A stretch of DNA of 35,303 bases from Promethearchaeia archaeon (GCA_029856145.1 JAHQWK010000014.1:1-35303); one strand, 5' to 3'; shown: positions 1 through 15,660, numbered from the stretch's first letter. Notes: generated from the sequence alone by a model not told the origin. Program-made: numbers and translations.

Positions 1-2
1 GG

Positions 3-1244
3 GATGTAACTGAGGATGAGTTTAAACTAATTTATGAGGTGTCAGAACATTCTGATGTTATCGGCACTTTACGAGGATTTGAGTATGAAGTTCCTATAGA
101 TTTCAAAAAGTTAGTAGAAAAACCATATGGTTTATTTGGAAGAACGGGAATTGGGAAGTCAATCCTGAATAAGATTCTATGTCTTTACATTTTAAAACAT
201 GAAGTATCTCAACTATTACTATTTGATATGCAAGGTGAATATGGTTTAGTTTCACGAGCAGACAAAACAAAGGGACTTGCATTTTATTTCCAACAAAAAA
301 TCCAGCTGTATCGCCTTAGTGAGTTAGATAAAAAGGATAAAGTGCTAGATGGATCAGAACAGTTTTTTATATATAAAGATAATATCTTGTCAGGAGATAT
401 TATTGCAAGCGCTCAGACTTTAAATGAACCTTCTATTAATACTCTTATCCAAATAGAGAACCTTTTAAGGAATGATCAAATCAAATATGATAATTTATTA
501 GCAGCTATACAAAATATAACTTCAGGAGAAGTTCAAACTCATAGAATCAATAATCTCTCTTTAGGAGCGTTGAAGAATAGAATCGTACCTTTTGAGAGAT
601 ATACGTTCTTAAAAGATCGAGGAGAATCTAAACGGGAGGATAGCATCGAACATATGTTTACAAAACTAATGGAAGGTAAATCCATCGTTATTGACTTTGG
701 GAAATATGGCACTAATACTCACTTATATCTATTTGTTGCTAATATGATTACAAGAAGACTGTATCATAAATATTCCCAAAAGGAAGATGAGGGCTCTTTA
801 CCTCCTTTAGTTGTTGTTGTGGAAGAGGCTCATAAATTTTTGAAATCTGGAATAATACAGCACACGATTTTTGACCGAATCGCACGAGAAACGCGAAAAT
901 TTCAGTTAACCATAGCGTTTGTAGACCAAAGACCTTCTCAAATTGATGAAGAAGTTTACTCTCAAATTGCTAACACTTTCGTTATGCACATGATTGATGA
1001 GAAAGATATCAAACGAGTTGTTCAGACGTTACCAGATTCAAAAAAATGGCGTGGGGTTATCTCTGGGCTTCAGAAAAGGCAATGTTTTATACGAGGAGAT
1101 GCTGTTGCGGTGCCCTCTATAGTTGAAATCTTTGACTATAATGATGAAAAAGAATTAAAGAAAAAGTTAGGAATAACAAAACCACTCTCAGAAACTCTTA
1201 AGGCTATAGAAGGATCAGACTTAACTGTTTTAGAAGATGATTAG
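3..1244 (+). CDS. herA: HerA/FtsK-family ATPase (DNA end-resection helicase), 5'-truncated by the window edge
   Basis: Frame is open from nt 3 (DVTEDEFKLIYEV...). Walker A GRTGIGKS, LFDMQGEY, Walker B VVVEEAHKF, arginine-finger region IARETRKF, DQRPSQID. Directly upstream of Mre11/Rad50. Confidence 0.9.
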   Translation, partial: DVTEDEFKLIYEVSEHSDVIGTLRGFEYEVPIDFKKLVEKPYGLFGRTGIGKSILNKILCLYILKHEVSQLLLFDMQGEYGLVSRADKTKGLAFYFQQKIQLYRLSELDKKDKVLDGSEQFFIYKDNILSGDIIASAQTLNEPSINTLIQIENLLRNDQIKYDNLLAAIQNITSGEVQTHRINNLSLGALKNRIVPFERYTFLKDRGESKREDSIEHMFTKLMEGKSIVIDFGKYGTNTHLYLFVANMITRRLYHKYSQKEDEGSLPPLVVVVEEAHKFLKSGIIQHTIFDRIARETRKFQLTIAFVDQRPSQIDEEVYSQIANTFVMHMIDEKDIKRVVQTLPDSKKWRGVISGLQKRQCFIRGDAVAVPSIVEIFDYNDEKELKKKLGITKPLSETLKAIEGSDLTVLEDD

Positions 1245-1284
1245 TATAATTAATTTTTTAAATAAATTGAAAAGGAATTAAATT

Positions 1285-4200
1285 ATGACAAGAATCTTTT
1301 TTATTGGAGATACTCACTTTGGAAAATCCTATCCTTTCAAAAGATTATATGAGCTTAATATTTCAGAAAGAAATTTGGATGTCATAAGTATTTGTGAGAA
1401 AATCGTTAACGCTGCTATTCAAGAAAAAGCAGAATTAGTAATTTTTCTTGGAGATCTCTACGATAGACAGAATATATCTCCAACAGTAAGAAAGATTGTA
1501 AGAGAACATATTTTCATTCCCTTAAATAAAAATGATATGAAAACAATAATTATCGGGGGAAATCATGATTCTATTAGAAATCCTAAAAGAGGAGCAGATA
1601 TTCAAGAATTATCTAATTTTCCGAATGTAGAAGTATATACTGGGCTTACATCAAAAATAATTGAAAAAAATGGTGTTAGAATTGGTATAATTTTTCTACC
1701 TTATATCCATTCTGATGTTCTAGTAAATTTTGCTAAAGAAAAAAATATCCCAATAGATCAAGATCAACATAACTATAGAATCGCTCAGCATATATTTGAA
1801 AATTATATTAAACAATTATGCGAAGGAGACCTTAGGGATTGTGATAAAAAAATTCTTTTAGGTCATTATTATTTAGATGGAGCAAAGATTCGCGAAGTTA
1901 ACAATCCTTCAATGATCTATGGAGAATTTAAGTTTAGCAAACAAATGGTTCAAAAGAATTTTTTCGACCTTGTTATTTTTGGACATGTTCATCTAAAACA
2001 AGTAATGTGGAATGATGAAAGAATTGTAATTCCTGGGGCTATCGATCAAATTGATATAGGAGAAAGAGATACTGATAAATTTTATTGCGTATATGATGTA
2101 GATTCAGATACTTTAGAATATCGAGAGATTGATTGTAGAAAACATGTAAAAACAGAGTTAGAAATTCCGGATGATTGTGAAGATTTAAATACATACTTAT
2201 TAGAGAATCTACCAAATAACGTAGAAATTAAAGATTCTGTATGTAAAGTAATAATTCATTATCCAAGGGGAAAAGAGACCAAAATTGATAAAAATAAGGT
2301 TGAGAAACATCTTAAAAAGTCGTTCTATACAGACATTAATTATAAGGAGAAAACTGAGAAAAAACTAGGAAGTCTAAGAGAAGTAAACTTGGACCCTAAA
2401 AGTCTATATCAAGATTTCCTTTATCAAAAATATAGAAATCATACTTATTATAATGATTTAAAATCAATCGGATTTGATCTTCTTGAAAAAGAATTATCAT
2501 CTGTTGATCTTACAGCAAAAGGCTCAATTTCTATCAAATCCATAGATATGCAGAATTTTAATAAGTATGGAAAGGGACCAAACAAAATAATTTTTGATAA
2601 AGATTTATATGTGATTAAAGGTCCTACAGGATCTGGTAAATCTTCTATTTTAGATGCAATTACGTTTGCGTTATTTAAAAGAAACACTCGAAAGGATGTC
2701 GGTCTTAATTTGGATGAAATTCTTTATCAAAATGGGTATGTTAATTTGGAAATGTTAATAGGGGATAATGTCTTAACGGTAAAAAGAAGTCAAAGATCTC
2801 CTAAATTGGATATAAAACTTGATGATGAGCCTCTCTTTTTAGGATTAAAGGTTCCAGAAAAAGAAAAAAGATTAGAAAGCATCATCGGATATGATTATGA
2901 GGCATTTATATCCTCGTTCTTTATCCGTCAACAAGAACTACAGATTTTCTCCACTTTATCATCTTCAGATCGGCATGAACGGCTTGTAAAATTGTTCAAA
3001 TTAAAAATATTTCAAAATATCTACAAAAAGCTAAAATCTACAATTAATGAGTTTGAGGGAAAACAACAAAAATTAGAAGGAATTATCATAGGAAAAGAGG
3101 AGAGATTTGATGAGTTACCTCAAAAGGAAAAGGATTTGAAATTAAAGGTTGATGAATTAGGAACAAAAGAAAAGGAACGAGATCAACTTTCAAGAGAAGT
3201 TCAAAATATAAGAGAGCAATTAGAAACCCTCCAAGAAGAAGCTACTCAATATGCAAGTACTCAAGAACGGATCAAAGAAATGAATGAAGAAATCGAAAAG
3301 AATAAGAATGACATTATAAATTACGAAAATCAACAAACCGAATTTGCAGAACTCCAAAAAAAATTAAATGAACTAAAGGATTTCAAAGAAGAAAAAATAA
3401 GAATGGAGAAACTAAAAGAATCGATTGAAACAAAGTTACATGAAAAGGAATTGATTGACACAGAAATTAAGAATTATAACAATCTAATAGCACAGACTGA
3501 AAAACAATTTACTACCCAATTGAAGTCGATAAAACATCAAGTTGAAGACAAAGAAGATCGTTTTTCACAGTTAGATGTTGATATGACAAAAGAGGAAGCA
3601 TTTAATATCTTAAAGGAAGATGGAATTTTAACAGAAAGACTTTCTCGACTTCAAAATGTAGAAATTCCTATGGCCAAAGAATATAATGACTCTACGCGTC
3701 TCAATGAATTCACTTCATTAGTTAAAAAAACTCAAAAAGAAGTATCATTACTTCAACCTAAACAAAAGCAGATATCAAAGGATATATTCATTGCTGATGA
3801 GTTAAAAAGCGATCAAAATGTCTTAAAAGATCAAATTATGGATATAGAGAAAAAGAAACAAGAAGAATTCGAGGAATTTTATGAAGAAATTAGGAAATTA
3901 GAAAAGCTCACTCAAGAAAAAAGTCTAAATGAAGATTTCAATGAAAAATTACAATTAGCAAAATCAGAATTAAGCATAATTCAAGAAGAAGAACAAGAGA
4001 AAGAATCATTAGAAGCACAATTGCGTAAATTGAAGGATTATTCACTTTTAATAGAGAAAGTAGAGAAAGATATTACTCAATTGAATAAGAACCTTAAGAC
4101 TTTAGATGATAAATTAATGAAATTAGAGTCGTCATATAAAAAGTATCTAGATATTGTTGAAGTATTTGGTAGACAACAACAAGAGTTACAAGACTTTGAA

Positions 4201-4854
4201 AGTACTATCAAAGGACTCCAAGTAGAAATTGGTTATATTACAAAGGATATAAAGGCTATAATGAAAACTAAAGACGAAGTAAAGAAAATCAAGAAAGAAC
4301 TTAAGGATATCAAAAACAACGTAGAAATCTATACTCTATTACGTAAAGATATATTTCATTTAAATGGTGTTCCTAGGTTTGCTATTGAAAAAATTTTACC
4401 TGAAATATCGATAAGGGCTTCTGAAATCTTAAGTGATCTTACAGATGGAAAGTTTAATCTAATTAGCTTTAAACCTTTAGGGGGCACTAGAGTAGGTTTT
4501 GAGATCTACGTATTTGATGGAGAGCGTGATCGTGAGGCAAGTAGTTTTTCAGGGGGAGAAAAAACACAAATAAATGCAGCTATACGGTTTGCGATTATGG
4601 AAAAAATTTCCGAAATTCCAGATACCACTGGAGCTTTGTTTCGAAAATCTAATACACTATTAATTGATGAGGGGGATCTGGGAACTTTAGATGATGAAAC
4701 TGCTCGGCAACGATTTGTTGATAAGATTTTCGAATTAAAATCAATGTTTAAGAAAATAATCCTTATAACTCATTTAGAAGATGTAGCAGAACAGTTTCCT
4801 AACAGGATTGTTATAGGATGGAATGAGTTAGGTAACTCAAAAATTTATCATTAA
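1285..4854 (+). CDS. Fused Mre11(SbcD)-Rad50(SbcC) nuclease/ATPase
   Basis: aa 1-~410 carry phosphoesterase motifs GDTHFG, GDLYD, GGNHD, LGH, FGHVH. From aa ~413: ISIKSIDMQNF, Walker A GPTGSGKSS (nt 2620), Q-loop FIRQQE, long coiled coil, signature FSGGE, Walker B/D-loop LLIDEGDLGTLD, H-loop ITH. No stop or frameshift between the halves. Confidence 0.93.
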   Translation: MTRIFFIGDTHFGKSYPFKRLYELNISERNLDVISICEKIVNAAIQEKAELVIFLGDLYDRQNISPTVRKIVREHIFIPLNKNDMKTIIIGGNHDSIRNPKRGADIQELSNFPNVEVYTGLTSKIIEKNGVRIGIIFLPYIHSDVLVNFAKEKNIPIDQDQHNYRIAQHIFENYIKQLCEGDLRDCDKKILLGHYYLDGAKIREVNNPSMIYGEFKFSKQMVQKNFFDLVIFGHVHLKQVMWNDERIVIPGAIDQIDIGERDTDKFYCVYDVDSDTLEYREIDCRKHVKTELEIPDDCEDLNTYLLENLPNNVEIKDSVCKVIIHYPRGKETKIDKNKVEKHLKKSFYTDINYKEKTEKKLGSLREVNLDPKSLYQDFLYQKYRNHTYYNDLKSIGFDLLEKELSSVDLTAKGSISIKSIDMQNFNKYGKGPNKIIFDKDLYVIKGPTGSGKSSILDAITFALFKRNTRKDVGLNLDEILYQNGYVNLEMLIGDNVLTVKRSQRSPKLDIKLDDEPLFLGLKVPEKEKRLESIIGYDYEAFISSFFIRQQELQIFSTLSSSDRHERLVKLFKLKIFQNIYKKLKSTINEFEGKQQKLEGIIIGKEERFDELPQKEKDLKLKVDELGTKEKERDQLSREVQNIREQLETLQEEATQYASTQERIKEMNEEIEKNKNDIINYENQQTEFAELQKKLNELKDFKEEKIRMEKLKESIETKLHEKELIDTEIKNYNNLIAQTEKQFTTQLKSIKHQVEDKEDRFSQLDVDMTKEEAFNILKEDGILTERLSRLQNVEIPMAKEYNDSTRLNEFTSLVKKTQKEVSLLQPKQKQISKDIFIADELKSDQNVLKDQIMDIEKKKQEEFEEFYEEIRKLEKLTQEKSLNEDFNEKLQLAKSELSIIQEEEQEKESLEAQLRKLKDYSLLIEKVEKDITQLNKNLKTLDDKLMKLESSYKKYLDIVEVFGRQQQELQDFESTIKGLQVEIGYITKDIKAIMKTKDEVKKIKKELKDIKNNVEIYTLLRKDIFHLNGVPRFAIEKILPEISIRASEILSDLTDGKFNLISFKPLGGTRVGFEIYVFDGERDREASSFSGGEKTQINAAIRFAIMEKISEIPDTTGALFRKSNTLLIDEGDLGTLDDETARQRFVDKIFELKSMFKKIILITHLEDVAEQFPNRIVIGWNELGNSKIYH

Positions 4855-4974
4855 TATTTAAGAAATATAGAAGTGATGAAAGATTTTGAATCAATATAGA
4901 ATAAAAAATATATTTAAAAATATCAATAATAAAATTTCGAAGATATTTATAAAAAAGAAAAAGAGGGTGAAATT

Positions 4975-5949
4975 ATGATAATTGAATTTCGATTTAACTC
5001 CAAGTCGTCAGGACAAAATGTACCTGAAGCTATTAGAATTGCCCTAAAATGTGGAGGTTTTATTGAAGATAGATTTTATAAAATTAAATTTGATGATCCT
5101 CAAGATAAGAATTTAAAGAATTTGTTTGCCTTAGTGGGAAATCTCAAGGGAACTGCTATTATATTGGAAGATGAGGAGCCAGTTATAGCACGTAAATTTT
5201 TTAATGCTGTAAACTGTCCAGAAAAGCTCATCTGCAAAGGAACTTGTCAGCATGTAAAGTTTGGCTATTATGATATCCTAGATTTCCTTGATGCACATTC
5301 AGAAAGCATTGAGAATAATGTATTTTCCACGTCAGAACATAATATAATTAGATACCTGTCGGACTTCTTAGAAGAGGTTGAAGAAAATAGATTTAAAGTG
5401 AATAAGGAATTGTTTCTAAATTACTTTAGACAAGAAACTGATATGGAGAATAAATTCTGTAAAAAATATAATATTCATAAAGCTCAAGAAGCAATACAGA
5501 AGTTACCAGATGAAATAAAACTAATTCCTTATGAAGAATCTCAGGAATATCTTGAGAAATATGAAGAAGAACTTGATATTGAGAGTATGATTCGAGGAAT
5601 TTTAAGGCACAGTGAGATAAGTACAGAACTAACTATACCCGAAATTATAGAATGTTCTAAAACAATAACTTACTTAATAACAGCATATTTCATATCTTTA
5701 GAGAATTCAGATGTTTTAATATCTTCGTTTCCTGAATTAAAACTAATTTCATTTACAAAGCTAATTCTTGATGAAGATTATGAACATATTGATGAATTGG
5801 AAGATGAGCAAATGAAATATATTGTAGCCAAAGAGAAAGAATTCTTTTGTGCATCAAATCCTTTTTCAAAACTATATTTCAGACTTTTTCAAGAACAAGA
5901 TAATACTCTAAAAGACAAACTCGAAATGCTTAAAAAACTGAAAAAATAA
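4975..5949 (+). CDS. Hypothetical protein with a Cys/His cluster (C-x5-C-x3-C-x-H)
   Basis: 324-aa ORF with upstream GAGGGTGA RBS-like motif; NCPEKLICKGTCQH. No family recognised. Confidence 0.7.
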   Translation: MIIEFRFNSKSSGQNVPEAIRIALKCGGFIEDRFYKIKFDDPQDKNLKNLFALVGNLKGTAIILEDEEPVIARKFFNAVNCPEKLICKGTCQHVKFGYYDILDFLDAHSESIENNVFSTSEHNIIRYLSDFLEEVEENRFKVNKELFLNYFRQETDMENKFCKKYNIHKAQEAIQKLPDEIKLIPYEESQEYLEKYEEELDIESMIRGILRHSEISTELTIPEIIECSKTITYLITAYFISLENSDVLISSFPELKLISFTKLILDEDYEHIDELEDEQMKYIVAKEKEFFCASNPFSKLYFRLFQEQDNTLKDKLEMLKKLKK

Positions 5950-5994
5950 AAACAGTGCACGGACAAGATACATAAAAATGTCATAGAGATCAAT

Positions 5995-6408
5995 TCAAGG
6001 TTCTTTATATTGTATATTTATAGAACAAATGTCATATTTAATTTTCATTTTTTTGAATATTTCTTCTAACACTTCTCCCCTAAATGAGTGAAGGCATTCT
6101 GTAAAGTGACAGCGTAGGTTTATATCTTCAAGTGCAGTATCTATTATATCTTTTAATATATCAATATTTTTGATATTGTTTCTATTTAAAATATCATAGT
6201 CATCATCTATATTATAAAGGTCCCAATTCCAAGAAAGTAATAAAATGGTTCTGAAATGTTCTTCTAATGTAACTTCACGATCATTCACATATCTCTTAAA
6301 AATTTCTTCATATTCCAATTTACCTAATAATTTTTCTCTTAATTTTTCTCTCAACTCCTCATATTCTAATAATTTATTAGTTTCAGTTATTTTTTCTTTC
6401 AGATTCAT
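5995..6408 (-). CDS. Hypothetical protein
   Basis: 137-aa ORF with ATG start, GAGGT upstream on the minus strand and Glu/Lys/Ile-rich protein-like composition. Confidence 0.6.
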   Translation of the reverse strand: MNLKEKITETNKLLEYEELREKLREKLLGKLEYEEIFKRYVNDREVTLEEHFRTILLLSWNWDLYNIDDDYDILNRNNIKNIDILKDIIDTALEDINLRCHFTECLHSFRGEVLEEIFKKMKIKYDICSINIQYKEP

Positions 6409-6546
6409 ACTTCATTACCTCTTGATTTATATTTGTCTTTATAATAAAATACTATTTTTAATAAAGGAAAATTCCAAAAGTTCCCTCTATTCTAATCTTG
6501 TCTTAATAATACCCATGTACTTTCTCAGATATAAATATTTTGTTTA

Positions 6547-6614
6547 GAAGATTGGTTAATCCCCACATTAACCAATAGTAATTTGAAGATTAGTTAATCC
6601 CTTCATTAACCAAT
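6547..6614. repeat. Two tandem 30-bp direct repeats, each an inverted repeat (10-bp arm, 6-bp spacer, 10-bp arm); candidate recombinase core sites or operators
   Basis: Copy 1 (6547-6576) GAAG-ATTGGTTAAT-CCCCAC-ATTAACCAAT has perfect arms. Copy 2 (6585-6614) GAAG-ATTAGTTAAT-CCCTTC-ATTAACCAAT has one arm mismatch. Gap 8 bp, period 38 bp. Confidence 0.92.
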
Positions 6615-6669
6615 TTTTCTTTTTATAGAAATGAAATAAATGGTATAAACAAAAAAATTATCAAAGACC

Positions 6670-7083
6670 ATGACAAGAAAAATAAACAGATTGGATATTA
6701 GAGAAGTGTCCTTGAAAATGAGAAGTGAAATTGATAGCATGTCCCGCTCTGATCCACGACTACTCGTATTTCTTGAATTCTTCCATAAGACGTTTCTCAA
6801 ATTAGTGAAAAAGATACAATTGCCTGTTAATACAGATGTACTAAATGCCGTAATAGGTGATTGTATTGAGGACGATGACAGGTTTCCGGATAGAAGCGAA
6901 ATAAATATGACAACGGGAGGATACTCTTTAGGTGAAATTTTCAATTATTTTAATAACTTTCTAAGTTCTACTTCCGACCTCATTCAGTTAATGTATATGT
7001 ATGGATTCAGTCAAGGGATATTAAACAGGATTATGAGGAAATTAAGGATTGAGTATGAAATTCCCCCACCATTTCCTGTGTAA
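6670..7083 (+). CDS. Hypothetical protein, first gene of the atypical block
   Basis: 137-aa ORF with ATG start, apparently helical, ending PPPFPV; co-oriented with the four downstream genes. Confidence 0.65.
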   Translation: MTRKINRLDIREVSLKMRSEIDSMSRSDPRLLVFLEFFHKTFLKLVKKIQLPVNTDVLNAVIGDCIEDDDRFPDRSEINMTTGGYSLGEIFNYFNNFLSSTSDLIQLMYMYGFSQGILNRIMRKLRIEYEIPPPFPV

Positions 7084-7171
7084 ACATTATTACTTTTAAT
7101 TGCCGAGTAATCAAAGTCATTTATTTCATTTCCAATTTTTTCTTTATAAAGAAATAGGTGATTCATCTTGC

Positions 7172-8605
7172 ATGACTCAATCTATTCAAATTAACAAGAA
7201 TAATTACAATGTACTCAGGCAACAATTTATCCAAACTCTAACCGACATAGACCAAATTCAATATAGTGATTTATTTGAGGAGTTTATATCAGTATTTAAT
7301 ACGGTACACTCGAAGATAAGGAGATATACTAAATATCGTAATATTAATCTTGCGTTTCCCCCTATTCTCTATATGTTTTTAAAGGTAAATGCTGTAGTGA
7401 TTAATAGACATATATTCTCCCAAAGTCTTGATTTAGCTTATAATCAACTTGTAAAAGACATGAAAAATTTTATTCCCTTGTATCCTGATTTTAAAAATCG
7501 CGATAAATCTCGGATGATATTTGCAATTATAGAGGATGTTGTAAGCTATTTTGACTTGCACCACCATTTTACTGATAACACTAAATTGCTTTATAACCAT
7601 TTTTATCCCTTACTCCAATTTACCTCAGAAGAACTTAGTGCGGGCGTTATTCTAGTCTTAACATTGACCGTTTCTGGGATTACTTCAATCAATATGGCCC
7701 AAATCTGTGAAAGGATCTGCGTTTCGAGTGGTTCAGTTTCGAATAAAATAAATAAGTATATTATTCCAAAATTAGGCATTCCCAATTTCCAATCCCCCAT
7801 TAATTCAGCATATTTATTAAGAGAAAAATTAGTGTCATTGATGACATTTCACCCAGTGCCTTGCCCTAGTACTTCTCTTACTGCCCCTTTAATTGAGAGA
7901 TCTTCTCTATGGACAAAAAACTTAAATGAACAATCCCTTCTATTGCTGAATATTATAATTGAAAGGATAACTAAGAAACAGAGTAACTATGAGCTACTAT
8001 CAAGATCAGAATTTCTCATTCATAGAAATATAAAAACCATTAGAAAGAATATAGACTATTTCATTAAATTATTGAAGCGAAAAAACATTAAACGAGATCA
8101 TAAAAGAATTGTGGGTGTATCTATTGCTTTCGCTTGCCCCAGAGCCTCGTTAAAAGCTATTTCGAGATTAATAGAGGTTTCAGGGAGTTCTTCTTTGAGT
8201 TGTTTATTCCAGAAAATAAGTCATAAAGGAACCTTTACCCAATATGCCAGTAAATTTCCCTATTTAGATTCCCATTATGCTAAGGAAGTCTTTCGAATAC
8301 TAAAGTATCACATCAAATCTTTAGATCTTGACTACAAATTCTATTGTATTGATTCCAAGCCTAAAACTATTTGCAATAGCATTGAGAAAATATGTGAAAT
8401 CGCAAACGAGATCGGTTTTCGGACACGAGAGCCTTTGATTGTTGCCACCAGCATAGCGCTTACAGACCCAAACTTATCTCAAAATGACATTAGCCAGTTC
8501 ATGACGGACACACTAAATATTCATGTTAATCACACCACATTTAGTCATTGTGTAAGATTATTTAGAGTTGTTAAGTTAGATGATCAAATTGAGAAAAACA
8601 CATAA
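7172..8605 (+). CDS. Divergent TFB/TFIIB-like protein with repeated cyclin-fold/HTH units and no Zn ribbon
   Basis: SEELSAGVILVLTLTVSGITSINMAQICERICVSSGSVSNKINK matches the pattern of the TFB C-terminal cyclin repeat and recognition helix. Similar units at RDHKRIVGVSIAFACPRASLKAISRLIEV and REPLIVATSIALTDPNLSQNDISQ. ATG 7172 is preferred over TTG 7100 because of AGGTGA at 7156-7161. Confidence 0.6.
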   Translation: MTQSIQINKNNYNVLRQQFIQTLTDIDQIQYSDLFEEFISVFNTVHSKIRRYTKYRNINLAFPPILYMFLKVNAVVINRHIFSQSLDLAYNQLVKDMKNFIPLYPDFKNRDKSRMIFAIIEDVVSYFDLHHHFTDNTKLLYNHFYPLLQFTSEELSAGVILVLTLTVSGITSINMAQICERICVSSGSVSNKINKYIIPKLGIPNFQSPINSAYLLREKLVSLMTFHPVPCPSTSLTAPLIERSSLWTKNLNEQSLLLLNIIIERITKKQSNYELLSRSEFLIHRNIKTIRKNIDYFIKLLKRKNIKRDHKRIVGVSIAFACPRASLKAISRLIEVSGSSSLSCLFQKISHKGTFTQYASKFPYLDSHYAKEVFRILKYHIKSLDLDYKFYCIDSKPKTICNSIEKICEIANEIGFRTREPLIVATSIALTDPNLSQNDISQFMTDTLNIHVNHTTFSHCVRLFRVVKLDDQIEKNT

Positions 8606-8654
8606 TTATTTTTACTTGATTTTTTATTATATATCCTATAACTAGAAGACAAAA

Positions 8655-9548
8655 TTGATGGTAATGGCAAAAATAGACGTAATTATTTCAGATCCGTTAT
8701 TTGCTCGGCTTCAGAAGATTTCTACATTACTCGACCTCGAATTTGATGAAGTTCTCGAATTAGTTCTTGTGGACGGAGGATACTATAGATATTGGGTTAA
8801 TATTAATAAGTTCATAGAAGATACATCTGATTTAATAGACTCACCAGATTCCACAGATAATATTTATGAAATTAAGATAGATTTAAGGCAACAATTCCAT
8901 GAACGGTTCGAAATTATAAGTGATATTGATTCCCTTGAGAGTAAGTTCAAAGAGAAATTTAGGCATTTTAAATCCGATATTGAACAGCATAGGACATTTT
9001 TAGATTTCATTGATATTCTCCATTCAGAGCAAATAATAGAAGGAGAAGAAAGAACAGAAGTCAAGGAAGAGCCTTCTGATATTCTGTCAGAGCAAGATAT
9101 TTACAGTATTCCTTCAACTGAAAATTCTTTAGCTCCAGACTCAGAGAAGTTTGTTCTTTCAGTAAAACTTTTGCCTAAGAAATATATACCCATGTTAGTG
9201 TTAATCGCAATGGCAGATTTTTTTGTTATCAAGTTAGCTCAGGTATTTTGGCCCTCATTTACTTTTTTAGATATACTTCATTATAACCCTCTTCAATTTT
9301 TCCCGTATTTCCTTTTGATCATTTTTACATCACTTCTAACAGGAGTCCTTTACCGTCATTATTATAATAGAACTAAGGCGAGTATACCAGTAAGAAGAGA
9401 GAAAAAAGAATTAAGACATTTTATTAAGAAATTCGATTCAAAAAATCCACGTACTTATTCCAAAGACCCGATAATACAGATCCATAATGATATAAAACGA
9501 CTTCAGAAACTTGAAAGGGAGTTTAGAATTAAAAGACAAAATAAATAA
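8655..9548 (+). CDS. Membrane protein with a putative N-terminal ribbon-helix-helix domain
   Basis: N-terminus AKIDVIISDPLFARLQKISTLLDLEFDEVLELVL fits the CopG/RHH strand-helix-helix pattern. Acidic linker, two hydrophobic segments (YIPMLVLIAMADFFVIKLAQVFW; FFPYFLLIIFTSLLTGVLY), basic tail. Confidence 0.6.
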   Translation: MMVMAKIDVIISDPLFARLQKISTLLDLEFDEVLELVLVDGGYYRYWVNINKFIEDTSDLIDSPDSTDNIYEIKIDLRQQFHERFEIISDIDSLESKFKEKFRHFKSDIEQHRTFLDFIDILHSEQIIEGEERTEVKEEPSDILSEQDIYSIPSTENSLAPDSEKFVLSVKLLPKKYIPMLVLIAMADFFVIKLAQVFWPSFTFLDILHYNPLQFFPYFLLIIFTSLLTGVLYRHYYNRTKASIPVRREKKELRHFIKKFDSKNPRTYSKDPIIQIHNDIKRLQKLEREFRIKRQNK

Positions 9549-9554
9549 TGGGAA

Positions 9555-12281
9555 TTGAAGAATATGTTTCAAGCTCAAGAGTTTAAAAAATTCGAGGAAA
9601 TATATCCTCTTGTAGTAGATTTGGACTCCCTCTGGGAAACTTCTCAGTTTAAGAAAATTCCAAAAATATTGGAGAAATTACTTGGTTATGGAAGTGATAT
9701 GAAATATCGTGTTCCAGTATCTTATATCTTTAGTATTGTCGCTGAACATGATAGCTCATTGCTTCCCCATGAAATCATTGAGAAATGTAAAGGATGGCTA
9801 ACTTCTAACAATGAATCTTTACGATTAAATTCTATAGCTATCATCGGTTCCTATCTTGTAAAAGAAAAAGACAACAAAGAAACTTTTGAGCCTACATTTT
9901 CAATTTTTATAAACTTACTGAAAGATCAATCGTCTGATATTAGAAATAATGTTATTTTTTTTCTTGATCAATTATCAAGTGAAATCGATTTTTATCACCA
10001 TCTTAGTTTGTTTTTACAAGTGTTACATATTGAAAGGACCCCACGCAATATTTTATCACTATTTAAATTTATCTCTTCTCGTGATGAGTTGACATTTCAC
10101 GAACTACAAAATTTACGTGAAATATTAATCCAAGTGGTAAAGAAATCTTTTTCTGATTCACAGAAATTTCGTATTAGCCTCAAATCCACCATTTCCAAGT
10201 TTTATCCCGGATTATCACGAATTGATTTTCCCACTATCACCCCTAATGACTTAATATCTGCTTTACAAGAACAAATTATTATCATTCGGCACGAATTTCC
10301 AGCACCTGAGACTCCATTCGAAGAAGAAATCACTAAGCACTTTAATTCGGTTATTAAAAAACATAGACAGACCGATGATAGGGTCAAATACATGATTTCC
10401 TTTTCCCTCAGAATGAAAGACATGTTATTCATTTACACTTTCGAGAAAAGACCTCTTATCAGCTTTTTTAATCAGCCTTATCCTATTAAACCCTCTGAAA
10501 TCGACACTCAATTCTCTTATTTTATTACGGAAGATGAAGAATTGAGAGCAGTGATTTCATATCTCTTAAAATCTAGATTTATCAATGGATATTTTTCCCC
10601 TTTAGGTGTTTTTTATCCTGAACAATATTTAAGATCTTTAGTTTTATCAGAATTAGAAAATACAGGAAAGATTGATGTGAACAGTTTCACCCATCTTCCA
10701 TTTCACATTGTTGAAAGGATACTAAAATCACTTAACAATATCATATTGCTCGAAGCCAAAAAGTTGGGTACATATTATTCTTCCCCCCATATTTATGAGA
10801 CTATAAACGAATTAGCAAAAAGGAATAGTTCTATTAATTTAAGAGAATATCGGAAAAGTTTATCCCCTTCAAGTTATTTTACTTTGATTCAAAACCTTCC
10901 ATCTAATTATTTCTCACAGTACCATGAGACGTCCCATTTTCTTACCAATATTGGTTTAAACAGAATCCTTAATGAGATTACACACTCACAATCAATCGGA
11001 TTTTACAGTATTTCAAAAATGAGCGCCCAATTCAATATCAATATTAAGCTGGTGAAAAAAGTCTTAGACGATATTGTTGATAAACGGAGTGGAATATATA
11101 ATACTTCAGGTGATACATTTTATTATACCCATTTCATCGAGAAAAAAATCAAATCAATTACCAAAGAAAAAGATAAGACTCAAGAGACAATCCAATCGAT
11201 AGCAAATGAATTGAATATTCATCAATTCCACATTGCTCAAACCTTAGAGGCTCATCAACATTCCATTGAAGAAGAGATCAAACAACAGGATAAAATTTCG
11301 ATTAAGAGATATTTGGATATCACGGGATTGAACTATAATGAATTCATGGACTTTATCGACTCATTAGACATTGATTATCTACGTCAAGGGATTTGGATCA
11401 TATTTGATGCAGAAAAAATTGAGAAGGCAAAAGAAGAAATAAAGACCACTCTATTAGACCAAGCTCAACGGATTAACCAAATTATTCTCACTTCACAGAA
11501 TTTTAGGATAACCTACAAGCTTATTTTTAGTATCGCTCAAGAACTCTACAATAATGGTGATTTAGAAGGCATTTTCTATAAGGGTGATAGAAGAACGTTG
11601 TTTTACACTCCCAAAGGCATTATCAACCTCATTAAAAAACATCAAATTCATTTTTCATATTCTGATCTGTTTCCAGGGAAAGAATTATCAGAAAAAGATA
11701 TTGAACTTATCACCAGCCTTATCAAGAAATTACTTACCAATAAAAAATTAAAAGGAGAATTCGATGAAGAAGGACGCAAATTCTCCAGCTATGATACGAT
11801 TTATGCCCGGAATACTGAAGACTTAATACGCCGATTTAAAGATATAATTTCAGAATATTTTAAAAAATTTGAAAAAACACACCTAGAAATTAAAAAGATT
11901 CTACTAAAGGAAGAAGAAGTTATTCGCCCTCAAATTGTTTCGACCATCACAAAAATTATTAACAACATCCAATCATATTTCATGTTTTGGGGCAGTGAGA
12001 TAGACAAAAATTTGTACAAAGCCAATAAAGTCCTCAATAAAATATACCCCAAACCAGAAAAAAAGGAAGATCAGAAGAACCAGAAAAAATTTAAACTCCA
12101 GGATGAACCTCTAATTCAAGAGCTATTAACAATATTTGACGGATGGACGAGCTTGTTTAATACTCTGGAGCAAAAATTTAAAAGTGTAATATTCCACCAA
12201 AAACAGCTGAAACGTGAGCCAAATAGTCTTGAGAGCAAACGAGCATTATATGAACTATTAAATGAATTAAGGATGAATTAG
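9555..12281 (+). CDS. Large HEAT-repeat plus tandem winged-helix (UFL1/PCI-like) protein
   Basis: HEAT-like WLTSNNESLRLNSIAIIG and NLLKDQSSDIRNNVIFFL. Repeated wing motifs INGYFSPLGVFYP, SGIYNTSGDTFYY, LEGIFYKGDRRTLFYT, LKGEFDEEGRKF. Helical C-terminus. Confidence 0.6.
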   Translation: MKNMFQAQEFKKFEEIYPLVVDLDSLWETSQFKKIPKILEKLLGYGSDMKYRVPVSYIFSIVAEHDSSLLPHEIIEKCKGWLTSNNESLRLNSIAIIGSYLVKEKDNKETFEPTFSIFINLLKDQSSDIRNNVIFFLDQLSSEIDFYHHLSLFLQVLHIERTPRNILSLFKFISSRDELTFHELQNLREILIQVVKKSFSDSQKFRISLKSTISKFYPGLSRIDFPTITPNDLISALQEQIIIIRHEFPAPETPFEEEITKHFNSVIKKHRQTDDRVKYMISFSLRMKDMLFIYTFEKRPLISFFNQPYPIKPSEIDTQFSYFITEDEELRAVISYLLKSRFINGYFSPLGVFYPEQYLRSLVLSELENTGKIDVNSFTHLPFHIVERILKSLNNIILLEAKKLGTYYSSPHIYETINELAKRNSSINLREYRKSLSPSSYFTLIQNLPSNYFSQYHETSHFLTNIGLNRILNEITHSQSIGFYSISKMSAQFNINIKLVKKVLDDIVDKRSGIYNTSGDTFYYTHFIEKKIKSITKEKDKTQETIQSIANELNIHQFHIAQTLEAHQHSIEEEIKQQDKISIKRYLDITGLNYNEFMDFIDSLDIDYLRQGIWIIFDAEKIEKAKEEIKTTLLDQAQRINQIILTSQNFRITYKLIFSIAQELYNNGDLEGIFYKGDRRTLFYTPKGIINLIKKHQIHFSYSDLFPGKELSEKDIELITSLIKKLLTNKKLKGEFDEEGRKFSSYDTIYARNTEDLIRRFKDIISEYFKKFEKTHLEIKKILLKEEEVIRPQIVSTITKIINNIQSYFMFWGSEIDKNLYKANKVLNKIYPKPEKKEDQKNQKKFKLQDEPLIQELLTIFDGWTSLFNTLEQKFKSVIFHQKQLKREPNSLESKRALYELLNELRMN

Positions 12282-12500
12282 AAATTTATTAATTCACCTT
12301 TAGTTTGATATTATTATATTATATTTTTTCTATTTAAGGGAAAAATTTCTTTTTCTATAGTTGAAATTATTAATCTTTTTACCTCTATTCTTATAAAATT
12401 AGAGATTTCTTCTTAAAATCCTAGAATTAAAGATTTTTTCTTTAAATAATCTCAAAAGATAGATAGTCCAACTCAATATAAATTATAAGAAGGTAGTAAT

Positions 12501-14363
12501 GTGGCTTCCGATAAAGATTTTGCAGTAGACAGGAACCCAACTCAGGACCCTCGAATAAATCCTGTAAGAGAGACTGAATCGAAAAGGAGAGAGCGTTATA
12601 TACAGACTAAATTCCGAGAAGATGTAAGACATATTACAAGGTTTTTACATACTGATATCACTAAATTTCGATTAGGAAACCCAATTATTAAGGAATTTAT
12701 GTGGAATTTCCAAGCTACATTTAATACCACGCATCTTCAATCTATCTCATATTTTCTTACCACAATAGGTTTTAAAGAAAAAGTGGAGGAAAATATGCCG
12801 GGTTTAACTGTGTTTCGCTATCCTCTCCCCATTGAAGGGCAATCCATCCATGTAAAAATTACGGAGCAAACAAGTAGAATTATAATCCATGCTCATATGG
12901 ACAAAAAGATACACACAGAACATGAACATAATGATTTTACCACATATCTTTTATCTGAATTAGGGAAATTCTTGCAAAATATTTATGAACCTTTATTTAT
13001 GAGACGTCAGATGAAGCTAACCCCTCAGTGGTTAAGGGACACAGAGATTCAAGAACCCCTAAAAGAACAAATTAACGCTGAAATCACCTCAGATACTGAT
13101 GTTCAGCTTATCAAAAAAATTAAATCTCAGTTTACACAGAATATTCCTGAGATTAAAGCCAAGTGTTTAGGTGAGTCAATGTCAAGAAATAGATTAATCC
13201 CAACAGGGAGGATACGCGAGATAGCATATCAACTTGTTACCTCTAATTTAGAGCAGGATGAAATCCAAAATTTGAGACATGTTGAATTGAATTTAAAGAT
13301 TTTTCTTGCAGACAAAATTGATATAATATATTCTGATTTAAAGAAGATCTATATGCAAGAAAAGAATAAGAACCCCCCACCCCCTCGTAGGCAGTTTTTT
13401 CCTAAAGAATACGTTAAAAGAAGCGAAATACTAAAGGCATCCACACCAGAAGTACCAGCCCCTCTACCTCAAAAACTTGACAAGATACCAAAAGAAGTTC
13501 TAACCGAAAAAATAGTAGAGAAAAGACAAATTACCCCTGAAAGCGTTTTAGAAAGAGCTGAAGAAATAGTAGAACCTCAGGGTTGGGGCTATTATGACGA
13601 GGAGGAGGAATTTAGAGAATATATAGATTCTGAAGTTACTGAAAGTATATTGATAGAGGATTCACTTACTCCTCGTAGTATACAAGAACATCCTAACATG
13701 ATTAGTAGCAGACCTTCCGAGATGGAGCAATCTTTGGCCCAACAGCCTCAGAGCGTGAGAGTGTCGTCTGTTCTGGAAGAAATTATTCATAATGAATTTG
13801 AAAAGATCTATCAGAAAGCTATAAGAGATATGGATTATCAAGTATTATTAATTGATATCATAAGAATAATACCCCCAAGGGTTAACGCTCGAATTGACCA
13901 GTATAACAATATTACGGCTCAGACATACAGATCCCAATTTGAGTATTATATGAAAAAACAATTTAATACAGATCTTACAGAGCTCCAGAATGTTGTAAGC
14001 TCTGAACGTAAAAGACTAAGAAAAAGAGCTTCTATAATCTCTCCAATTAGGAAAGTAGCGATCTCCTTCTTGTGGTGTTTATGCACAGTTGCTGCTTTTT
14101 ATTTCTTATTTTATCTCCTACATATCCAGTGGCTTCCCTATGAGGATCTTTACCGATTTTTCCCAATACAATGCACTCTATTTCTATTATGTGCATTTTT
14201 ATATGGGACAGATCTATGTACACTTATTATAGTGGGATATAGGGCAATTAGAGGGCGTGAATTAACAAAAACAGAAGAGGGGTTAGGTGCGGTAGGAACA
14301 TTATTTTGTATTAGTAGTATCGCAGTTATTTGCAACTTTTGCTTCTTGTTTTTTCTGCTATAA
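12501..14363 (+). CDS. Hypothetical membrane protein with a large soluble N-terminal region and about three C-terminal TM helices
   Basis: 620-aa ORF, GTG start after AGAAGGT. His cluster IHVK...HAHMDKKIHTEHEH, Pro/Glu-rich low-complexity middle, Cys-rich hydrophobic C-terminal helices. Confidence 0.7.
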   Translation: MASDKDFAVDRNPTQDPRINPVRETESKRRERYIQTKFREDVRHITRFLHTDITKFRLGNPIIKEFMWNFQATFNTTHLQSISYFLTTIGFKEKVEENMPGLTVFRYPLPIEGQSIHVKITEQTSRIIIHAHMDKKIHTEHEHNDFTTYLLSELGKFLQNIYEPLFMRRQMKLTPQWLRDTEIQEPLKEQINAEITSDTDVQLIKKIKSQFTQNIPEIKAKCLGESMSRNRLIPTGRIREIAYQLVTSNLEQDEIQNLRHVELNLKIFLADKIDIIYSDLKKIYMQEKNKNPPPPRRQFFPKEYVKRSEILKASTPEVPAPLPQKLDKIPKEVLTEKIVEKRQITPESVLERAEEIVEPQGWGYYDEEEEFREYIDSEVTESILIEDSLTPRSIQEHPNMISSRPSEMEQSLAQQPQSVRVSSVLEEIIHNEFEKIYQKAIRDMDYQVLLIDIIRIIPPRVNARIDQYNNITAQTYRSQFEYYMKKQFNTDLTELQNVVSSERKRLRKRASIISPIRKVAISFLWCLCTVAAFYFLFYLLHIQWLPYEDLYRFFPIQCTLFLLCAFLYGTDLCTLIIVGYRAIRGRELTKTEEGLGAVGTLFCISSIAVICNFCFLFFLL

Positions 14364-14578
14364 CTACTTTTTCCTTAAGATGACTTTGTACTTTTTATGT
14401 CATTTTATAAAGATTTAATACAAACAAGAATTTGTTTTAATTCAGTCCTTGATGTATCTCTAGCTGAATTGAATGATTTAAGCATTCTTGACATTTCCTC
14501 ACTCAATTCATTAAGATCTATATAATTATTTTTCTCAATTATCTTCAATTTAAAATATTATTCTTATAATTATTTCAT

Positions 14579-15058
14579 TTAACTTGGGAATTCATAAATA
14601 ACAATTTCCACATGTGATAAGTGCTTAAATTTTGCTGTACTACGTCCACGAGCACGTGGAATGTATCTTTTTATTATTCTTCCCCTATGTGTTGCAGCAT
14701 GAATGATTCTACAGAGATCAATGTCTAAACCTTTATATTCTGCATTTGATTCTACAGATGTGAGAATTTCATATATTCTAGCAGCTGCTTTTTGAGGATA
14801 CCGTCCAGCATACCATTTAAATTGCTTTAAATCGTGTCTATGAGCAGCTTTTTTCTTATGTCGTCTAAAAGGTACTGATTGTTCTAAACGAATTACTTTC
14901 TCTAAATAAGTTTTTGCTTGATCTACTTTCATTCCTTTTATTACAGCACAAATTTCCCTTGCTGGTTTTGGTTTAATTCTGATATCTCGACCTGATGCTT
15001 TTGCTAATCTTTCTGTATCATACTTTTGTTCTGTAAAAGAATAACCCCACGTTGGCAC
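14579..15058 (-). CDS. rpl22: 50S ribosomal protein uL22, archaeal type
   Basis: AKASGRDIRIKPK, VPFRRHKKK, AGRYPQKAA, NAEYKGLD, YIPRARGR, HVEIV. Confidence 0.97.
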   Translation of the reverse strand: MPTWGYSFTEQKYDTERLAKASGRDIRIKPKPAREICAVIKGMKVDQAKTYLEKVIRLEQSVPFRRHKKKAAHRHDLKQFKWYAGRYPQKAAARIYEILTSVESNAEYKGLDIDLCRIIHAATHRGRIIKRYIPRARGRSTAKFKHLSHVEIVIYEFPS

Positions 15059-15084
15059 TTATTATCAACTCACATAAATTATCT

Positions 15085-15660
15085 TTATTTTAATGGAACA
15101 TACTTTGAACTTCTTGTGGCTCCAATCCCTGGTGACCCATGCTGTACTCGTCTTCTTGTAAGAGAAAATTCCCCAAGATAGTGTCCAATCATCTCAGATT
15201 TTACTTCGACTATTTCAAAGATTCTACCGTTATATACACCTATTTTAAGACCGACCATTTCAGGAAATATTATCATATCTCTTACATGAGTTCTCGTGAG
15301 TAAATCCTTACCTCTCTTTTTAGCTCGATATGCTCGTCTTAACCTTTCGAGTAATTTCTTTTGTCTAGGAGGTAAACCTCGTTTTAACGATCGTCTTGCT
15401 CTAGCGGGTAATAATTGTATGAATTGATCCATATTCATTTTCTTCAATTCTTCAAGAGTATACCCTCTATACTTGAATCTTAGTCTATCTAACTCTGCTT
15501 TTGTATCTAGCTCTCCTTCTTCTATAGAATCTTCTTTAATTTCAGCCTTAGTTTCTGTTTCAGTCTCTTTCTCTGAATCTGAATCTTTTTCTAAATCACT
15601 CTGAAGTTCTTCTTCCCTTTCTTCTGATTTTTTTTCATCAGATTGTTCATCCGGAGCCAT
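15085..15660 (-). CDS. rps19: 30S ribosomal protein uS19, archaeal type, with an acidic N-terminal extension
   Basis: [66 protein letters not shown]. Confidence 0.97.

Follow-up and report, generated by a model that had tools for sequence, protein, structure and literature searches.

Genes at the locus

The window, i.e. the whole stretch of DNA analysed here with a length of 35,303 nucleotides, is the complete contig C14 of G000, a metagenome-assembled genome (MAG) of a Promethearchaeia archaeon (GCA_029856145.1; 3.55 Mb, 32 contigs, 97% complete, 5.4% contamination, about 30% GC). Other contigs of the same MAG are referred to as C2, C3, C8, C22, C24 and C31. The gene content of G000, with seven canonical TFB genes and one PF09743/PCI/DDRGK protein, fits an Asgard archaeon. 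The subject of this study is a row of four co-oriented genes, named p2 to p5 (7117-14363), which form a conserved, compositionally foreign accessory cassette; a fifth gene ahead of them, p1, lies outside it. Table 1 provides an overview of the features.

A first-pass annotation, made from the sequence alone, had described p1 to p5 as a five-gene candidate system of co-oriented open reading frames (ORFs), none of them an ordinary enzyme, bounded by palindromic repeats on the left and by the convergent uL22 gene on the right. This inventory holds: all five ORFs are present, the gaps of 88, 49, 6 and 219 bp are correct if the ATG at 7172 is taken as the start of p2, none of the five ORFs reaches the Pfam threshold, and uL22 (rpl22, 14579-15058) as well as uS19 to its right are convergent with the cassette. 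The palindromes (6553-6613) are likewise real and arranged in tandem, with no further such site in the 3.55-Mb genome. They are not part of the cassette, since they are absent upstream of its second copy, which is described below. The segment 7117-7171, with a TATA-like box and a GGTGA motif ahead of the p2 ATG, is the putative promoter region of the cassette, and p5 may have a promoter of its own within the 219-bp spacer.

Table 1. Features of the cassette and its immediate surroundings (positions counted from the first nucleotide of the window; aa, amino acids; TM, transmembrane segments predicted by hydropathy).
Feature	Position	Strand	Description
Tandem palindromes	6553-6575, 6591-6613		Between the divergent orf137 and p1; T[GA]GTTAAT-N6-ATTAACCAA
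p1	6670-7083	+	137-aa ORF; adjoins the cassette, not a member
Cassette 5' region	7117-7171	+	TATA-like TTTATAAA at 7143-7150, GGTGA at 7157-7161; nucleotide homology to copy 2 (C2:83077 downward) from 7117
p2	7172-8605 (ORF open from 7100)	+	477 aa (501 aa from 7100); modelled TFB-type double-cyclin core and helical extension of about 230 aa
p3	8655-9548	+	About 294-297 aa; acidic N-terminal domain, 2 TM, basic tail; orphan family
p4	9555-12281	+	908 aa; HEAT/ARM 1-240, about 7 tandem winged helices at about 298-745, helical tail 746-904; UFL1-like
Spacer p4/p5	12282-12500	+	219 bp; kept in copy 2 (gap of 223 bp there); within the 85%-identical stretch
p5	12501-14363	+	620 aa; conserved N-terminal part of about 290 aa, variable middle, 3 C-terminal TM; orphan
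Right-hand insertion junction	14364-14578	.	Ribosomal-protein operon beyond; rpl22 stop at 14579

A conserved four-gene cassette and its second copy

The same MAG contains a second copy of the cassette, which is distributed over two contigs. In its first part, window positions 7117-9869 correspond to C2:83077-80328 with 91% nucleotide identity, covering p2 (90% amino acid identity), p3 (80%) and residues 1-105 of p4 (93%). In its second part, positions 11523-13340 correspond to C31:1-1819 with 85% nucleotide identity, covering the C-terminus of p4 (88% amino acid identity) and the N-terminal 345 residues of p5 (60%). The homology starts exactly at the putative p2 promoter region, and p1 is not covered.

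The four genes are also set apart by their composition, their sense strand being unusually C-rich. Ranked against the 1377 ORFs of at least 300 amino acids in the genome, the coding-strand GC skew of p2 (-0.094) lies at the 0.4th percentile, that of p4 (-0.088) at the 0.5th, that of p3 at the 6.7th and that of p5 at the 6.0th, and copy 2 has the same skew. The skew of HerA, Mre11-Rad50, orf324 and p1 (41st percentile) is typical for the genome. With no second copy in the genome, homology that begins only at 7117 and a typical skew, p1 is excluded, so that the five-gene system of the first pass stands as a co-located, conserved module with four members, p2 to p5.

The search for relatives covered 5.8 billion proteins. 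For p3 (65% amino acid identity), p4 (66%) and p5 (42%), the JGI relative was in each case traced to a contig with a length of 20,674 bp, taken to be one and the same contig. In addition, the JGI contigs L087 and L089, both from one metagenome, match the two copies with 99.5% identity, and L087 runs unbroken through p2, p3 and p4, i.e. across the point at which copy 2 is broken in G000. Because copy 2 and the one JGI contig keep the genes together at 42-66% amino acid identity, their togetherness goes far beyond a neutral retention of gene order. The homologues are thus not scattered, as the first pass had allowed for, since they lie together in copy 2 of the same MAG and on one JGI contig. 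PADLOC profiles gave no match for p2 to p5 and PHROG profiles gave none for the cassette proteins, nor did either provide a lead for p3 and p5.

These data bear on the simplest alternative, namely that unrelated orphan genes have come to lie side by side in a variable region and have no joint function. The absence of recognisable domains in p3 and p5 would be in keeping with it, as would the 219-bp gap before p5, which allows separate transcription. However, the same genes occur together in copy 2 and are traced to one JGI contig at 42-66% amino acid identity, gaps of only 49 and 6 bp separate p2, p3 and p4, and the unusual composition is common to all four genes, which leaves this alternative only a very slim chance.

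Copy 2 itself is broken. On C2, the p4 copy ends abruptly with a TAG at about codon 105 (C2:80322-80642), about 280 bp ahead of a conserved thymidine-phosphorylase-like gene, and C31 opens with the C-terminus of p4 (C31:1-756) and the p5 copy, with about 1.65 kb of p4 either unassembled or deleted. The C2 copy of p4 is therefore either truncated or cut by an assembly break. Copy 2 is flanked on C2 by a conserved core gene on one side and by orphan genes on the other, and on C31 by a core gene; in a closed, complete relative the core genes flanking it on C2 and C31 are about 149 kb apart. The cassette flanks have only AT-rich 11-mers in common and nothing of 12 nucleotides or more.

A probable insertion between rpl22 and rps3

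From rpl22 rightwards, the window is syntenic with all five same-genus genomes compared, two of which are closed. In each of the five, rps3 and the remaining genes of the ribosomal-protein operon come directly after rpl22, with a spacer of about 40-50 bp in four of them and of 145 bp in G011, and the cassette block is absent between the two genes. In G000, the operon continues with rps3 on contig C8, from 31679 downwards. Ahead of rps3 on this contig lie an orphan ORF of 153 amino acids and then a giant ORF of at least 3377 amino acids (C8:32330-42463; L055:1831-11964, minus strand), which runs off the contig end and has no Pfam match. As the contigs stand, the inserted DNA comprises window positions 1-14578 and C8:31680-42463, which together put at least 25 kb between two genes that are direct neighbours in the relatives. 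The contig structure thus suggests that the cassette lies inside a strain-specific insertion splitting rpl22 from rps3, and the earlier proposal that the genes are cargo of an integrated element holds in the sense of accessory cargo, the block being carried by a strain-specific insertion and not core genome.

As the MAG consists of 32 contigs with 5.4% contamination, an artefact of assembly or binning has to be weighed here, either a chimeric join near rpl22 at a conserved or low-complexity region or an origin of copy 2 in a co-binned strain, in which case neither the insertion nor the duplication would exist within a single genome. The distribution of copy 2 over C2 and C31, its abrupt end inside p4 and the distance of about 149 kb between its flanks in the complete relative would agree with such an artefact. 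A real insertion is argued for by the two independent contigs, which break at the same rpl22/rps3 spacer and each continue into non-core DNA. Furthermore, L087 spans p2, p3 and p4 with 99.5% identity across the break of copy 2, and runs from three studies contain 0.89-0.93 of the sampled words of window positions 6000-15500, a value that does not address the junction itself. The unity of the cassette is independent of the junctions in any case. We therefore consider an artefact improbable.

The rps3 gene of G000 (C8:30867-31679; L055:365-1183, minus strand) shows a peculiarity of its own, a 30-nucleotide insertion relative to the G005 orthologue. Within it, an in-frame TGA at about C8:31451 separates the KH part from the S3_C part, so that the gene is divided over two ORFs. 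The insertion may stem from faulty sequencing or assembly, or it may be a small intervening element. In G011, rps3 seems to be interrupted near its 5' end (L053:10250-10460), where a short conserved N-terminal stretch is followed by an additional segment containing stop codons before the gene continues.

p2, a predicted TFB-type core

In its structural model, p2 is a TFB-type double-cyclin core with two tandem cyclin repeats arranged as in TFB. Residues 30-225 are modelled with a predicted local distance difference test (pLDDT) score above 90, and residues from about 8 to 230 superpose on P. woesei TFB (1d3u_B; VIA Z 15.9, root-mean-square deviation 2.8 Å, 189 of 201 residues). The next 38 or so rows of the VIA list are TFIIB/Brf chains, and cyclins reach a Z of at most 10.1 with a single repeat covered. 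The best Foldseek match is 1ais_B with a TMt of 0.73.

With 18-25% identity, p2 is related to a TFB-like family of the genus with a length of about 415 amino acids, of which 481 cluster representatives were obtained at E<=0.001. Among 64 members of this family, 36 carry the TFIIB zinc ribbon PF08271, and the TFIIB repeat PF00382 is found in six (best E 3.3e-5). In p2, Pfam matches neither PF00382 nor PF08271, and CxxC or Cx4C motifs are missing from its sequence. Alignment A2 shows p2 starting only after the zinc ribbon carried by its relatives; in the place of their conserved ribbon-to-core segment, p2 has only a short, non-conserved stretch. In the model, the first cyclin repeat marks the beginning of the TFB-like part, near residue 8. 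Judged by its sequence, p2 lacks the zinc ribbon, the B-reader and the B-linker. The A2 profile of the p2 family found nothing significant among the PDB sequences.

The suggestion of four cyclin repeats in p2 is not confirmed, as the C-terminal 230 or so residues are helical but poorly modelled (pLDDT 35-70) and BLAST detects no internal repeat between the two halves of the protein.

In TFB and TFIIB, the zinc ribbon docks on RNA polymerase. A core without ribbon and B-reader can sit on TBP-DNA but cannot recruit or position the polymerase.

A ribbon-bearing paralogue of about 415 amino acids is encoded elsewhere in G000 (C22:118141-122476; L059:6142-10477, minus strand), where the next gene downstream encodes a 999-aa prenyltransferase-like alpha-alpha-toroid protein and the one after it a DEAD/ResIII helicase. 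A large ORF downstream is also seen in relatives.

p4, a UFL1-like scaffold with a core paralogue

The AlphaFold model of p4 has a mean pLDDT of 84.5 and, according to DSSP, consists of an ARM/HEAT domain (residues 1-240), a small beta-rich element (243-297), about seven winged helices (298-745) and four long helices (746-904). The ARM/HEAT domain gives generic VIA matches with a Z of about 13-14. A condensin/HAWK-type or adaptin subunit was also considered for p4 and rejected, as the resemblance is limited to the generic HEAT part. In a Foldseek search of the PDB, the first five ranks are taken by human UFL1, namely by 8qfc_B, 8ohd_A, 9gy4_E and the two chains of 8b9x, a UFL1-DDRGK1 chimera, with E values from 2.9e-7 (8qfc_B, 688 columns) to 3.3e-5 and a probability of 1.00. 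The full-length UFL1 chains align over 676-688 columns, and chain A of the chimera reaches a TMt of 0.46 over 233 columns.

At the profile level, the p4 family matches a protein of G000 with 789 amino acids that is positive for PF09743, PF09756 and PCI (hhalign probability 92%, E 6.5e-7, 222 columns). PF09743 (E3_UFM1_ligase) itself has no match in p4 at E<=1, and the C31 copy of p4 contains a faint stretch with an E of 0.29; the true PF09743 match of the genome is another gene, located on C3 (67.7 bits). This gene (C3:58900-61269; L081:439-2808, minus strand) encodes the Pfam-recognisable 789-aa UFL1/DDRGK/PCI protein, which has a Vps28-like C-terminus, and adjoins a gene for a DsbD_2-type membrane protein. 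In a six-frame search of G000, neither UFM1 (PF03671) nor UFC1 (PF08694) was found at E<=1, although divergent Asgard Ufm1 homologues might escape these models. Since neither protein was detected in the genome, an enzymatic ligation of UFM1 is unlikely.

p4 is a fast-evolving accessory paralogue of a core Lokiarchaeial scaffold gene with the same combination of HEAT and UFL1-like parts. The core paralogue is present in 24 of 24 same-genus genomes, where it has 33-36% identity to p4, and, in two further families, in most of the genomes sampled. In G000 it is located at C24:67631-70351 and is 33% identical to p4. The core gene has a GC content of 23.6% and a typical skew. In G005 (L015:6225-14914), the core scaffold stands in a conserved row of metallo-beta-lactamase, an unknown ORF, HAD hydrolase, scaffold, PriL, PriS and Gins51, and the same row is found in G000 at C24:60000-79999, judged by ORF sizes. 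The core scaffold thus adjoins replication genes, as its row runs on into PriL-PriS-Gins51. No homologues of p1, p2, p3 or p5 were found beside it in 20 relatives. In a midpoint-rooted FastTree tree, the p4 of the window and the JGI protein form a long branch with a support of 1.0, which is sister to the core clade of the genus, with another family as outgroup. Among the 5.8 billion proteins, a single island-type relative of p4 was found, P0010, which is 66% identical over residues 2-763. The novelty of this locus lies in the accessory paralogue and the genes linked to it.

The membrane-anchored proteins p3 and p5

That two of the proteins are membrane-anchored, as proposed in the first pass, is borne out by hydropathy. 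p3 has transmembrane segments at residues 176-200 and 213-233, followed by a strongly basic tail, and p5 has three at its C-terminus (518-545, 558-580 and 593-620), with a basic stretch ahead of them. Because basic stretches flank these segments, the N-terminal domains of both proteins are probably cytoplasmic. For p3, the homologues suggest the ATG at 8664 as the start.

Both are orphans. p3 has only four relatives among the 5.8 billion proteins, which are aligned in A5, and p5 has two, P0002 from JGI (42% identity) and the copy on C31; a p5 homologue was found in none of 40 relatives. p3 has no Pfam match at E<=1, and the A5 profile has no PDB match below an E of 0.2. Its conserved N-terminal 45 or so residues show a beta-alpha-alpha pattern by eye only, with no profile match alongside. 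Of the DNA-binding folds proposed in the first pass, the TFB-like core of p2 is supported by its modelled structure and the HEAT/winged-helix array of p4 was also recovered, whereas the ribbon-helix-helix fold of p3 could not be confirmed by a Pfam or PDB-profile match. p5 has no Pfam match and no significant PDB-profile match, and its Atlas search gave no usable lead (model pLDDT 0.48). A metagenome scan with the p5 alignment found nothing, nor did scans of IMG/VR with the p4 and p5 alignments.

A more distant relative of p3, with 40% identity over residues 3-122, is encoded on a JGI contig (L088:1613-2969; Ga0209427_10080384), where it is preceded by a 312-aa tandem winged-helix protein of the MarR/TrmB type. 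This one case hints only weakly at a pairing of p3-type proteins with DNA-binding factors. The neighbours of distant p3-like genes in G021 and G017 are unrelated to p2 or p4.

This pairing recalls the proposal of the first pass that p2 acts like a sigma factor, i.e. as an alternative initiation factor that p3 and p5 hold inactive at the membrane and free on a signal. The TFB-core gene does lie 49 bp upstream of a membrane protein gene, and the tandem MarR protein ahead of the distant p3-like gene is weakly consistent with a partnership of factor and membrane protein, although this adjacency is a single case. However, p2 as predicted lacks the zinc ribbon and the B-reader and should not recruit RNA polymerase, for which reason a freed p2 would not be an active initiation factor, and no sensor domain is recognised in p3 or p5. 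A regulation of this type is very unlikely in our view. The DNA tethering that the first pass had also considered is likewise not supported.

p1 and the left flank

To the left of the cassette lie HerA (39-1244), a fused Mre11-Rad50, two orphan ORFs and the two tandem palindromes. Homologues of p1 elsewhere are sparse and weak and occur in genomes without p3; relatives of p1 in two other genomes contain in-frame TGA codons. Residues 80-123 of p1 weakly match the C-terminal part of the PADLOC SIR2 models (E 5.5e-4). p1 is probably a member of the defence-like left part of the insertion, and together with HerA it may be the remnant of a SIR2-HerA-type defence gene.

Proposed function and significance

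As a whole, the locus is best explained as a foreign four-gene cassette, carried in an insertion of at least 25 kb, with p4 as a membrane-tethered scaffold and p2 as its client or regulator; we hold this explanation tentatively, at a little less than an even chance. According to it, p3 and/or p5 would keep the p4 scaffold attached to the inside of the membrane, in a manner similar to DDRGK1, which is anchored in the endoplasmic reticulum (ER), with UFL1. p2, as modelled, would probably still bind TBP and promoter DNA without recruiting the polymerase, and because of this combination it is proposed as the client or regulator of the p4 complex, i.e. as a decoy or sequestered TFB. Taken jointly, these specifics, with p3 and/or p5 tethering p4 like DDRGK1 tethers UFL1 and p2 as an associated decoy or sequestered TFB core, remain doubtful.

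Several observations weigh against this explanation. The insertion is read from two separate contigs and not from reads, and copy 2 is broken within p4. Scans with Pfam and PHROG of the left part of the window, the C8 side and the flanks of copy 2 revealed no integrase, recombinase, capsid or replication genes, in agreement with what the first pass had seen, although the insertion is only partly assembled. A tRNA gene at the insertion is also missing, and the two insertion junctions share no direct or inverted repeats of at least 11 nucleotides, i.e. no att site was found. Mobility in the strict sense is therefore not supported. The membrane-scaffold mechanism is drawn from gene adjacency and from the analogy to DDRGK1-UFL1; p3 matches neither PF09756 nor PCI, has no detectable DDRGK or winged-helix domain and carries its transmembrane segments on the C-terminal side. 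Finally, the neighbour of the 40%-identical p3 relative is of the MarR type in place of the TFB-like type.

Some of these points also bear on another explanation, in which a mobile element or virus has captured a TFB-like factor and a UFL1-like scaffold from its host and uses the four genes for takeover or maintenance. The ribbon-less TFB would then be a dominant-negative decoy that redirects host transcription, and the membrane proteins would serve the element. In its favour are the foreign composition, the two copies in different contexts, the long branch of the island p4, the insertion site beside a defence-like HerA/Mre11-Rad50 cluster and orphan genes, and the patchy distribution: p5 was found in none of 40 relatives, and metagenomes are the only source of close relatives of p3. 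However, neither an integrase, capsid or replication gene nor a terminal repeat or tRNA target was found, there is no PHROG match, and the IMG/VR scans with the p4 and p5 alignments were empty, which makes this explanation unlikely.

The explanation as a membrane-tethered scaffold also has a more far-reaching form, which we regard as quite unlikely. By analogy, the cassette would be an archaeal, UFM1-independent counterpart of the ER-anchored DDRGK1-UFL1 pair, in which p3 and/or p5 dock p4 to the cell membrane and p4 would hold a large nucleoprotein client, either a ribosome or, via p2, a TBP/TFB-type complex. If this were true, the linkage of the genes would point for the first time to what the Asgard UFL1-like scaffolds work with and to what they did before UFM1.

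The eukaryotic platform of the UFM1 ligase is thought to descend from Asgard UFL1-like scaffolds. To our knowledge, nothing is known of the partners and the function of these winged-helix scaffolds. p4, a paralogue of such scaffolds that travels with two membrane-anchored proteins and a TFB core predicted to be deficient in recruitment, provides concrete candidate partners, namely p3, p5 and p2 for p4, and TBP-DNA for p2. Moreover, the contigs place this accessory DNA in the otherwise strictly conserved rpl22-rps3 junction, and the cassette exemplifies how, in Lokiarchaeia, transcription and scaffold genes of host origin move as cargo. If it is only strain-specific baggage, its interest is modest.

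Comparison with known systems

The cassette is best filed as built from two known kinds of Asgard proteins and two orphan partners. In UFL1, a partial winged helix is completed by DDRGK1, and the two proteins form the winged-helix platform of the UFM1 E3 ligase. p4 resembles UFL1 (8qfc, 8ohd, 9gy4, 8b9x) in that a long series of tandem winged helices leads into a helical C-terminal domain, and the gene of the membrane-anchored p3 ends 6 bp ahead of p4, which is comparable to UFL1 working with the ER-anchored DDRGK1. However, p4 has an N-terminal HEAT/ARM domain of 240 residues, apparently in place of the UFC1-binding helix and the partial winged helix of UFL1, with the beta-rich element (243-297) ahead of the first winged helix, it has no PF09743 match, and neither UFM1 nor UFC1 was detected in G000. 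Since the global TM-scores of p4 are low (0.16-0.22), the likeness lies in the domain array and not in the rigid shape. DDRGK1/UFBP1 consists of an anchor and a C-terminal DDRGK/PCI-type winged helix, whereas in p3 the transmembrane segments lie on the C-terminal side and a DDRGK domain is missing; p3 may nevertheless be analogous in function. According to Picchianti et al. 2023 (PMC10183829), UFL1 and DDRGK1 arose in Asgard archaea and may have had a function that did not depend on UFM1, and Ufm1 homologues have been described in nine Asgard clades (2026 study, PMC12962969).

The core Lokiarchaeial scaffold (about 908-925 amino acids; the cluster is named "hypothetical protein", with PF12717 Cnd1 on 28% of the members) agrees with p4 in length, domain order and 33-36% identity over the full length. 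It differs in its position between HAD hydrolase and PriL-PriS-Gins51, whereas p4 neighbours p2, p3 and p5, has a foreign composition and stands on a long branch.

In the model, p2 superposes on both cyclin repeats of the TFB/TFIIB core (P. woesei TFB-TBP-DNA, 1ais and 1d3u). It differs from TFB/TFIIB in the apparent absence of the ribbon, B-reader and B-linker, in the missing PF00382 match and in the additional, poorly modelled helical half of about 230 amino acids. With the bacterial sigma factors and their membrane-bound anti-sigma factors, the cassette shares the adjacency of a gene resembling an initiation factor (p2) to genes of membrane-anchored proteins (p3 and p5) with large, probably cytoplasmic domains; it differs from them in that there is no homology, no sensor domain is recognised and p2, as predicted, lacks the part that recruits the polymerase.

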